Positions 21,914 through 22,681 of a stretch of 64,000 bases of DNA are shown here, in pieces (position 1 is the stretch's first letter; each line of letters starts with the position of its first letter). Location of the stretch: sequence record ON568341.1. The stretch is one strand, 5' to 3'. The DNA comes from Escherichia phage UE-S1. A program made the position numbers and the translations under genes. Under the pieces are notes generated by a model that saw only the letters and a program-made list of their open reading frames with translations, was not told the origin of the DNA and did not search any database.

Positions 21914-22108
21914 ATGGCAGACAAAACATTTTATGATCGTATTATTGAAGACAAGGGAGTTTTTGATAAGGTAGTTTATGACTTGGAACTTATGATCAAA
22001 GACGCACCAAATCCACGAGTACGAACACAAGCAGAATTTGCAAAAACTTATCTTGTTCAAGTTCAAGCAATCTGTGAAGCAATTAAACAACACAATGATA
22101 GAACTTGA
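21914..22108 (+). CDS. hypothetical small protein (64 aa)
   Basis: Plus-strand ORF preferred over the overlapping minus-strand ORF 21893-22117 on strand consistency. Confidence 0.4.
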   Translation: MADKTFYDRIIEDKGVFDKVVYDLELMIKDAPNPRVRTQAEFAKTYLVQVQAICEAIKQHNDRT

Positions 22109-22133
22109 CAGAACCAACGTTCTATCCTATAAT
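22105..22133 (+). promoter_or_regulatory. consensus sigma70-type promoter (TTGACA-17-TATAAT)
   Basis: TTGACA at 22105-22110, 17-bp spacer, TATAAT at 22128-22133, upstream of IF3 homolog. Confidence 0.6.
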
Positions 22134-22177
22134 TACTATTGAACAAAACATTAAAATCATATTGGAGCTTTTATTAC

Positions 22178-22681
22178 ATGAAATCTATTATTGCCAATAA
22201 CGAAATCACCGCAAAAACTGTCCGTTTGGTAACGGAAGGAACAAGTGAAGTCATGGCAATCTCTAAAGCATTAACTTTAGCAGAAAATCAAGGTTTGGAT
22301 TTGGTGGTTATTGGTGCTGGTGATGAACCTGCTGTAAAAATTACTGATCTTAACAAATACAAGTACGAATTGAAACAAGCTGAAAAGGCTTCTCTTAAAA
22401 AACAGCGTCAAAACGCTATCAGTGTTAAAGAAATTCAATTCAATTTTGGTACACATGAGCATGATTTGAAGATTAAAGCCAAAAGTGCTGTGAAATTTCT
22501 TGATGAAGGAAAACATGTACATATTGTAATGAAAACTTCAGGACGTGGGACTAATGCATCTGTAATTCAAGCTAATATTAATGCAATGGAATCATTCGTT
22601 AATCGTTTGGGTAACGTTACATTTGTTCAAAAAGTAGAGTTCCAAGGTAAGAAGGTAACCTGTACTGTCAAAGTAAAATAA
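22178..22681 (+). CDS. infC: translation initiation factor IF-3 homolog
   Basis: Both IF3 domains align to E. coli IF3: [12 protein letters not shown] ... [20 protein letters not shown] and [42 protein letters not shown]; ATG at 22178 with GGAG RBS. Confidence 0.75.

Follow-up and report, generated by a model that had tools for sequence, protein, structure and literature searches.

The open reading frame that follows a consensus promoter in the window, meaning the whole 64,000-nucleotide stretch of Escherichia phage UE-S1 that was analysed (ON568341.1), encodes a two-domain protein with the fold of translation initiation factor IF3 (Table 1). This phage IF3 probably binds the host 30S subunit in the manner of cellular IF3 and sustains IF3 activity through a long infection while being exempt from autoregulation; from sequence comparison and the predicted structure we infer 30S binding, anti-association activity and a benefit to the phage. 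The IF3 gene of 121Q/PBECO4-like jumbo phages is already known. It is annotated as IF3 in 121Q (gp47, with identical neighbours) and in many relatives, as InfC-like in RaK2 (ORF153) and as IF-3 in GAP32 (GAP32_313), and IF-3 homologues in GAP32, 121Q, PBECO4 and RaK2 were stated in the CBB paper (PMC5259590). IF1 and IF3 have been placed among the huge-phage genes that may redirect translation (Al-Shayeb et al.; PMC7162821), IF3 and the KTSC protein have been proposed as possible ribosome-rescue or translation-support factors (Iyer et al.; PMC7824862), and in the paper on the relative Sharanji the function of IF3 'cannot be definitively stated' (PMC11895373). No experimental work on any phage IF3 was found in the literature.

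The 167-aa protein was compared with Pfam, TIGR00168 and PHROG profiles, and IF3 was the top and only significant match, in agreement with its identification in the sequence-only reading. Both Pfam domains scored above their cut-offs (IF3_N, 59.4 bits against 26.9; IF3_C, 48.5 bits against 34.8), the infC equivalog TIGR00168 was matched at 108.1 bits (NCBI cut-off 60), and phrog_9787, 'translation initiation factor', was matched at E = 1.1e-69 (aa 1-167 of the 168-position profile). BLASTP against an E. coli IF3 sequence that agrees with PDB chain 8jsg_A as aligned except at residue 122 covered 120 aa at 42% identity (E = 4e-20), and a PDB sequence search gave E = 1e-17. Over the whole alignment, 34% of residues were identical to E. 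coli IF3; by region the figure was 40% for the N-domain, 45% for the first half of the C-domain and 10% for the final 40 residues. The earlier description of the protein as aligning to bacterial IF3 along its whole length was borne out by the profiles and the structure but not by pairwise BLAST, which spanned 120 aa. The 42-residue stretch quoted in support of that description is present and shares 19 of 42 residues with E. coli IF3.

An AlphaFold model built with 27 homologues (mean pLDDT 88.8) contained two alpha/beta domains with a helix between them. In the PDB, the top 24 Foldseek matches were all IF3, bacterial or mitochondrial, and Thermus IF3 on the 30S subunit (5lmn_X) was matched with a TM-score of 0.74; TM-scores for the separate domains are given in Table 1. 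The C-domain fold in a structure prediction had been set beforehand as a check on the identification, and the N- and C-domain folds were both present. The phage protein resembles bacterial IF3 (E. coli) in its two domains, Lys-rich helical linker, fold and most basic C-domain contacts, and in its isoelectric point (9.6, against 9.7 for E. coli IF3). Unlike E. coli IF3, it has no N-terminal tail (E. coli residues 3-14), and it contains only 4 Arg residues against 15. The terminal extensions of mitochondrial IF3 (IF3mt) are also absent.

Table 1. Positions of the IF3 homologue, its expression signals, its downstream neighbours and the tRNA genes in the window.
Feature	Position	Strand	Remarks
-35 hexamer TTGACA	22105-22110	+	Exact; overlaps TGA stop (22106-22108) of upstream 64-aa ORF
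-10 hexamer TATAAT	22128-22133	+	Exact; spacer 17 nt
Putative transcription start	near 22140	+	Predicted from the promoter hexamers
Putative 5' UTR, ~38 nt	22140-22177	+	A/U-rich, unstructured, carries GGAG
Shine-Dalgarno GGAG	22164-22167	+	Ten nt 5' of ATG 22178
IF3 homologue CDS	22178-22681	+	167 aa; ATG start; TAA stop 22679-22681
IF3 N-terminal domain, aa 7-71	22196-22390	+	PF05198; 1tif TM 0.77
Lys-rich helical interdomain linker, aa 58-79	22349-22414	+	AlphaFold helix; Y63 = E. coli Y75
IF3 C-terminal, 30S-binding domain, aa 81-165	22418-22672	+	PF00707; 1tig TM 0.84
Loop KTSGRG, aa 119-124	22532-22549	+	= E. coli 129-RFRGRE-134; G132, R133 kept
ClpS-like adaptor gene	22695-23240	+	13 nt 3' of IF3 gene; remote homology only
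KTSC-domain protein gene	23311-23856	+	PF13619, 50.9 bits; third of conserved trio
tRNA-Gly(UCC)	61577-61648	+	
tRNA-Ser(UGA)	62482-62571	+	
tRNA-Arg(UCU)	62576-62652	+	

The start of the IF3 homologue was assigned to the ATG rather than to an upstream TTG at 22139, an option in the list of open reading frames, because the TTG lies only 5 nt past the -10 hexamer and because homologues begin with Met-Lys (M-K-S/E). The ATG and the GGAG are kept in the IF3 gene of all six phages examined. In cellular infC, by comparison, the start codon is AUU or AUC; it is the target of autoregulation, and changing AUU to AUG abolishes the control (PMC5499595). With AUG in place of AUU/AUC, synthesis of the phage IF3 would not be limited by autoregulation. 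The cellular infC-rpmI-rplT operon is likewise absent from the phage, where the ClpS-like and KTSC genes lie downstream instead. Start codon, operon and leader are features of gene regulation and not criteria of the protein family. A regulatory leader of the kind found in E. coli or B. subtilis infC was sought and rejected: no Rfam family, the L20-leader included, was matched at gathering score, and the folding of the 5' UTR equalled that of shuffled sequences (z-score 0.12).

The promoter had been called a perfect TTGACA-17-TATAAT, and the match is exact. The window contains five exact TTGACA-N17-TATAAT sites, each of them on the + strand, where shuffled sequences predict 0.06; of promoter-like sites with at least 11 of 12 matches and a spacer of 16-18 nt, the + strand has 24 and the - strand 1. 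The IF3 promoter therefore belongs to a strand-biased promoter class that exceeds chance, and the 24:1 bias agrees with gene orientation in the window (96 of 109 heuristic gene calls on +). Positional conservation supports it further: 121Q and CBB (12/12 matches) as well as GAP32 and RaK2 (10/12) have a sigma70-like promoter placed between -65 and -73 relative to the ATG. The sequence flanking this promoter has diverged among the relatives although its position is kept. No sigma70-like promoter was seen at the corresponding position of Xanthomonas phage XaC1. In CBB, the region around the IF3 gene was put in a divergent promoter class associated with genes for DNA synthesis and not in the very early region (PMC5259590). 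For the early expression suggested in the sequence-only reading, a loose search of the literature found no measured timing, either of the IF3 gene or in this phage group.

The window is AT-rich (33% G+C), and the DNA around the IF3 gene is ~91% identical to that of Escherichia phage 121Q, PBECO4 and other Asteriusvirus jumbo myophages (320-385 kb). The identical 167-aa protein was also found on a metagenomic scaffold of 344,097 bp. Homologues were detected by tblastn in 97 phage records, and those above about 50% identity came from jumbo phages of Escherichia, Salmonella, Klebsiella, Erwinia, Serratia, Yersinia, Cronobacter, Pectobacterium and Xanthomonas. Protein identity was 95-96% to 121Q, PBECO4 and ph0011 and 54-70% to RaK2, GAP32 and CBB. 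The IF3s of Asteriusvirus and RaK2-like phages (121Q gp47, PBECO4, ph0011, Sharanji WNN14575.1, RaK2 ORF153, GAP32_313 and CBB_318) represent the same gene, with the same length, ATG start and neighbours, and differ from the window protein by sequence-level divergence only.

The IF3 gene is under purifying selection, with dN/dS of 0.08 against 121Q and 0.12-0.24 in deeper comparisons within the clade. The gene order DHFR, RNase H, Dda helicase, structural protein, small ORF, IF3, ClpS-like, KTSC is shared by 121Q, RaK2, GAP32, CBB and XaC1. These five phages comprise three named genera and the unclassified XaC1, and the RNase H position is occupied by an unnamed ORF in RaK2. The dN/dS values and the conserved gene order together indicate a long-standing core gene that has been passed down vertically under functional constraint, as opposed to one captured recently from a host. 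The 34% identity to E. coli IF3 also speaks against recent host capture, as do the nearest relatives outside the clade. In an exhaustive search of 1.8 billion representatives, 5446 IF3-family matches were obtained, only 6 of them at E < 1e-30; the nearest non-clade relatives were metagenomic proteins on contigs of 0.7-619 kb, several of which are jumbo-phage-sized (330-619 kb). No bacterial donor could be named among these closest non-clade relatives by cluster look-up. The best matches recorded in older annotations are scattered (Megasphaera, Hydrogenobacter). That the gene might be a decaying or non-functional relic of a captured host gene, for which only its divergence from cellular IF3 speaks, is close to inconceivable given an ORF intact in all relatives, dN/dS of 0.08-0.24, and conserved synteny and signals.

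Full-length IF3 is also encoded by other huge phages (LR756501 and LR756511 of Al-Shayeb et al., Agrobacterium phage Atu_ph07 and Sinorhizobium phage Phosso). Their proteins fall on separate branches nearer to canonical IF3, with 46-53% identity to canonical-type representatives and 33-42% to the window protein. The genes of LR756501 and LR756511 scored 91-100 bits with IF3_C, against 48.5 for the window protein, and the IF3s of Atu_ph07 and Phosso have annotated GTG starts.

Residues were then considered in E. coli numbering. Positions K110, R112, R116, R129, R133 and R168 are basic (K/R) in the phage protein and Y75 is kept; we take these residues, from the IF3 mutagenesis literature, to be implicated in 30S binding. 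At least 90% of clade members have K/R or Y at each of these positions apart from 168, which is basic in 24 of 28. Five residues are not kept (R99, F130, R131, E134 and R147), of which R99 and R147 vary in other IF3s too. Because these five are not conserved, the phage protein could be less active, or act differently, on E. coli ribosomes. Replacement of R99 by S/T and of Y107 by L was considered as a clade-specific loss and rejected, both being frequent in other IF3 representatives.

A departure from cellular infC that stands out, besides the ATG start, is in the start-codon-inspection loop RFRGR (with E134), a conserved functional motif that is no criterion of the IF3 family models. It is absent from the phage protein, with F130, R131 and E134 lost and a 3-residue insertion directly after KTSGRG. 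Across the clade, F130 is replaced by T or A and E134 by G, and none of the 26 members has a basic residue at position 131, which varies (V/A/S/T/I/N/E/Q); among 130 canonical IF3 representatives, 113 have R/K at position 131 and 104 have E134. The closest metagenomic relatives show the same trend in the loop, whereas Atu_ph07 and Phosso keep RFKGRE. In cellular IF3 the loop sits at the start codon, with R131 in contact with the mRNA base at +4; the R131P substitution favours non-AUG and leaderless initiation in vivo, and putting the mitochondrial KKGK in place of RFRGR loosens AUG/GUG discrimination and eases the inhibition of leaderless mRNAs (PMC11775629). The 129-133 loop is altered in IF3mt (KKGK), in Mycoplasma IF3s (P/F/Y at 131) and in E. 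coli R131P as it is in the phage, and in those three cases the alteration goes along with looser discrimination and with acceptance of leaderless or non-AUG starts (PMC11775629). The degenerate loop of the phage protein suggests, by this sequence comparison, weaker inspection of the start codon and the +4 base than by host IF3.

These observations bear on a second reading, in which the phage protein would be a specialised IF3 with relaxed or altered proofreading that displaces host IF3 and biases initiation to phage mRNAs. Loss of R131, F130 and E134 would let it tolerate suboptimal codon-anticodon pairs, +4 contexts and weak initiation regions; if some discrimination were kept, it could repress host infC through the AUU start while being itself exempt through its ATG. 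We regard this as possible, though clearly less probable than a supplementary IF3. The clade-wide loss at position 131, its contrast with Atu_ph07 and Phosso, the published effects of R131 and KKGK changes together with the Mycoplasma residues, and the removal of autoregulation by the ATG start all argue for it. Against it, variability at position 131 resembles lost constraint and not a new specificity, and the changes at R99 and Y107 lack clade specificity.

Start-codon usage likewise counts against relaxed proofreading. ATG starts were found in 48 of 53 annotated 121Q genes checked and in ~91% of the window gene calls, which are heuristic and whose non-ATG members are mostly doubtful short ORFs; the bacterial average is 80% AUG (PMC5499595). 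No leaderless start was found downstream of the five exact N17 promoters, of which three, that of the IF3 gene among them, are followed by a Shine-Dalgarno sequence and a leader. No excess of non-AUG starts or of leaderless genes was seen in the window calls and behind the consensus promoters, and the phage apparently has no need for relaxed initiation. In this it differs from systems of the IF3mt and Mycoplasma type, where initiation does involve leaderless or non-AUG mRNAs or unusual initiator tRNAs.

The idea that the phage supplies an initiator tRNA suited to an altered IF3 was also considered and rejected. The tRNA(CAU) of 121Q, whose gene lies outside the window, pairs G1-C72 and is without the three anticodon-stem G-C pairs; it has C4-G69, C5-G68 and G27-U43, which we take to be features of tRNA-Ile2 (lysidine). 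It is therefore no altered initiator, a further point against relaxed proofreading. The suggestion of the sequence-only reading that the gene implies manipulation of start-codon selection and a translational takeover was accordingly found to be an unsupported extrapolation, given ~91% ATG starts with Shine-Dalgarno sequences, no sign of leaderless genes and a non-initiator tRNA(CAU). The three tRNAs for AT-rich codons that had been cited with it are present, and their codons are enriched in the ORFs of the window (AGA 9.0, UCA 19.2 and GGA 12.8 per 1000). E. coli uses all three codons several-fold less often, and carrying such tRNAs is the ordinary codon-supply behaviour of AT-rich phages; since the tRNA genes lie ~40 kb from the IF3 gene and are unlinked to it, they provide no evidence on IF3 function and only lend colour to the idea of a translation toolkit.

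The product of the gene next to the IF3 gene reached E = 6e-4 with Pfam ClpS, below the cut-off, and was matched to phrog_15940; its best PDB matches were all ClpS, but weak. The ClpS-like gene is probably co-transcribed with the IF3 gene. An IF3-Clp gene pair recurs in the unrelated phages Atu_ph07 and Phosso, and no such adjacency was found in the huge-phage genomes LR756501 and LR756511. An association with defence or anti-defence was rejected, PADLOC having returned one marginal match (CARF model, E = 0.0017). A further reading, which we hold to be unlikely, joins the neighbour to the altered loop: the phage protein may be a re-tuned, autoregulation-free factor that accumulates, out-competes host IF3 on the 30S subunit and shifts the range of accepted initiation regions, perhaps acting with the ClpS-like adaptor (for example in Clp-directed removal of a host translation component). 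Were this true, the IF3-Clp pair in Atu_ph07 and Phosso would reflect a real functional coupling.

Still less probable is a role as a ribosome wake-up or recycling helper, in which the phage IF3 would trap 30S subunits released from hibernating 100S/70S ribosomes or from post-termination complexes and so permit translation in slow-growing or stationary hosts. The IF3 fold and most basic contacts are kept, as this role would have it, and the anti-association function of IF3 resides in the C-domain. Sharanji, a relative, also encodes a protein of the S30EA/HPF family (PMC11895373), and the proposal of Iyer et al. noted above, ribosome rescue or support of phage translation, points the same way (PMC7824862). 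Nothing in the window, however, points specifically to hibernation, and such a helper would be a sub-case of the supplementary IF3 with no distinct mechanism.

A dominant-negative mimic that fills the IF3 site on the 30S subunit, is itself defective and so aids the shut-off of host translation is very improbable. The strongly diverged C-domain, the loss of several Arg residues implicated in function and the strong promoter are compatible with such a protein; purifying selection on the linker, the two domains and the majority of contact residues counts against it. A general block of initiation would also harm the phage, which uses the same ribosomes and canonical Shine-Dalgarno/AUG initiation.

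The supplementary IF3 thus remains the reading that we favour, and its steps can be set out as follows. Host sigma70 RNA polymerase would transcribe the IF3 gene from the consensus promoter, probably along with its ClpS-like and KTSC neighbours, and translation of the phage IF3 would begin at an ordinary Shine-Dalgarno/AUG start. The protein would then occupy the platform and P-site region of the host 30S subunit, where it may hold the subunits apart after recycling and speed formation of the initiation complex. IF3 activity would in this way be kept or raised during a long infection, when expression of host infC is expected to fade; for the relative Sharanji, a latent period of 60 min is recorded (PMC11895373).

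Phage initiation factors are often cited in support of the view that large phages redirect host translation. Since a phage of this clade, Sharanji, infects E. coli K-12, the question lends itself to experiment, and the gene offers three handles: an AUG start that bypasses autoregulation, the clade-wide loss of R131, F130 and E134, and the trio of IF3, ClpS-like and KTSC genes. If the phage protein is a mere supplement to host IF3, the case would be one of ordinary gene capture; if initiation fidelity is altered, it would be the first viral case in which start-site selection is re-tuned through IF3.

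Promoters of the consensus sigma70 class, scored at 11 or more of 12 matches over the whole window, were strongly skewed by strand (24 on the + strand, 1 on the - strand). Six of the sites in the window were perfect, one of them with an 18-nt spacer. Its sites were scattered through the module for replication and nucleotide metabolism and through the small-ORF block. At the IF3 gene, the -35 hexamer of the promoter contained the stop codon of a conserved 64-aa ORF that immediately precedes the gene, and a second, near-consensus promoter site overlapped the start of this ORF (Table).

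The RaK2-like clade comprises the jumbo phages 121Q, PBECO4, RaK2, GAP32, CBB and others; in two phages outside it, the annotated IF3 start codons differed. The IF3 genes of the Agrobacterium phage Atu_ph07 and the Sinorhizobium phage Phosso were annotated with GTG starts, in contrast to ATG in the RaK2-like clade, and the annotated GTG also differed from the AUU or AUC of cellular infC.

A Clp-system gene adjoined IF3 in two distantly related jumbo-phage lineages, a ClpS-like adaptor gene in the RaK2-like clade and ClpX in Atu_ph07 and Phosso. The ClpX genes were bona fide (553 bits). The IF3 proteins of the two lineages lay on different branches (33-40% identity), and topoisomerase II genes were found near the IF3-Clp pair in both. 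The pairing was not found in the two huge-phage genomes examined (LR756501 and LR756511), each of which carries its own IF3 gene.

In this part of the window, many genes interleaved with replication genes had counterparts annotated as virion structural proteins in 121Q and CBB, something not usually seen in an early or middle region; the IF3 gene carried no virion-protein annotation. The 529-aa product of one such gene in the window had a hit to MA3, a domain with an eIF4G/PDCD4-type fold, that stayed below threshold (19.2 bits, cut-off 23.2; E = 1.2e-3) and is probably due to chance.

Features and coordinates (L006, piece of 121Q; L013, piece of Atu_ph07; L014, piece of Phosso; coordinates within each piece)
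Feature	Location	Details
Promoter class, example sites	window 6198, 22105, 40290, 55391, 57798, 57251	
Near-consensus promoter	window 21909-21937	TTGACA-17-TATGAT, 11/12
64-aa ORF	window 21914-22108	phrog_15132
IF3 + ClpS-like pair	window 22178-23240	ClpS-like gene 13 nt downstream of IF3
ClpX + IF3 pair, Atu_ph07	L013 244-2066	ClpX directly upstream of IF3
ClpX + IF3 pair, Phosso	L014 3984-5830	ClpX directly upstream of IF3
Genes annotated virion structural	window 21324-21887, 23828-25417	121Q equivalents gp45, gp50, gp51; CBB gp320 = KTSC homologue
529-aa protein	window 23828-25417	phrog_18596; 29-nt overlap with 3' end of KTSC gene
tRNA-Gly(UCC)	window 61577-61648	ARAGORN call; annotated in 121Q
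tRNA-Arg(UCU)	window 62576-62652	clean; ARAGORN; Rfam 62.7 bits
Diverged sequence annotated tRNA-Leu(taa), 121Q	L006 1586-1667	same slot as tRNA-Arg(UCU); not called by ARAGORN
tRNA annotated Met(CAT), 121Q	L006 3564-3638	outside window

The slot immediately after tRNA-Ser(UGA) was occupied by different tRNA genes in the window, tRNA-Arg(UCU), and in 121Q, annotated tRNA-Leu(taa). Because the flanks of the slot were conserved between the two, the sequences suggest a cassette replacement. Compensatory changes were present in the anticodon stem of tRNA-Ser between the window phage and 121Q, and tRNA-Gly(UCC) fell below the Rfam tRNA gathering score in a scan of the whole window. In the 121Q tRNA annotated as Met(CAT), G1-C72 was paired, C4-G69, C5-G68 and G27-U43 were present, and the three G-C pairs of the anticodon stem were absent. 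Its appearance is that of a lysidine-type tRNA-Ile2, which would read AUA, and not that of an initiator or elongator tRNA-Met; AUA occurred at 16.5 per 1000 in the ORFs of the window.
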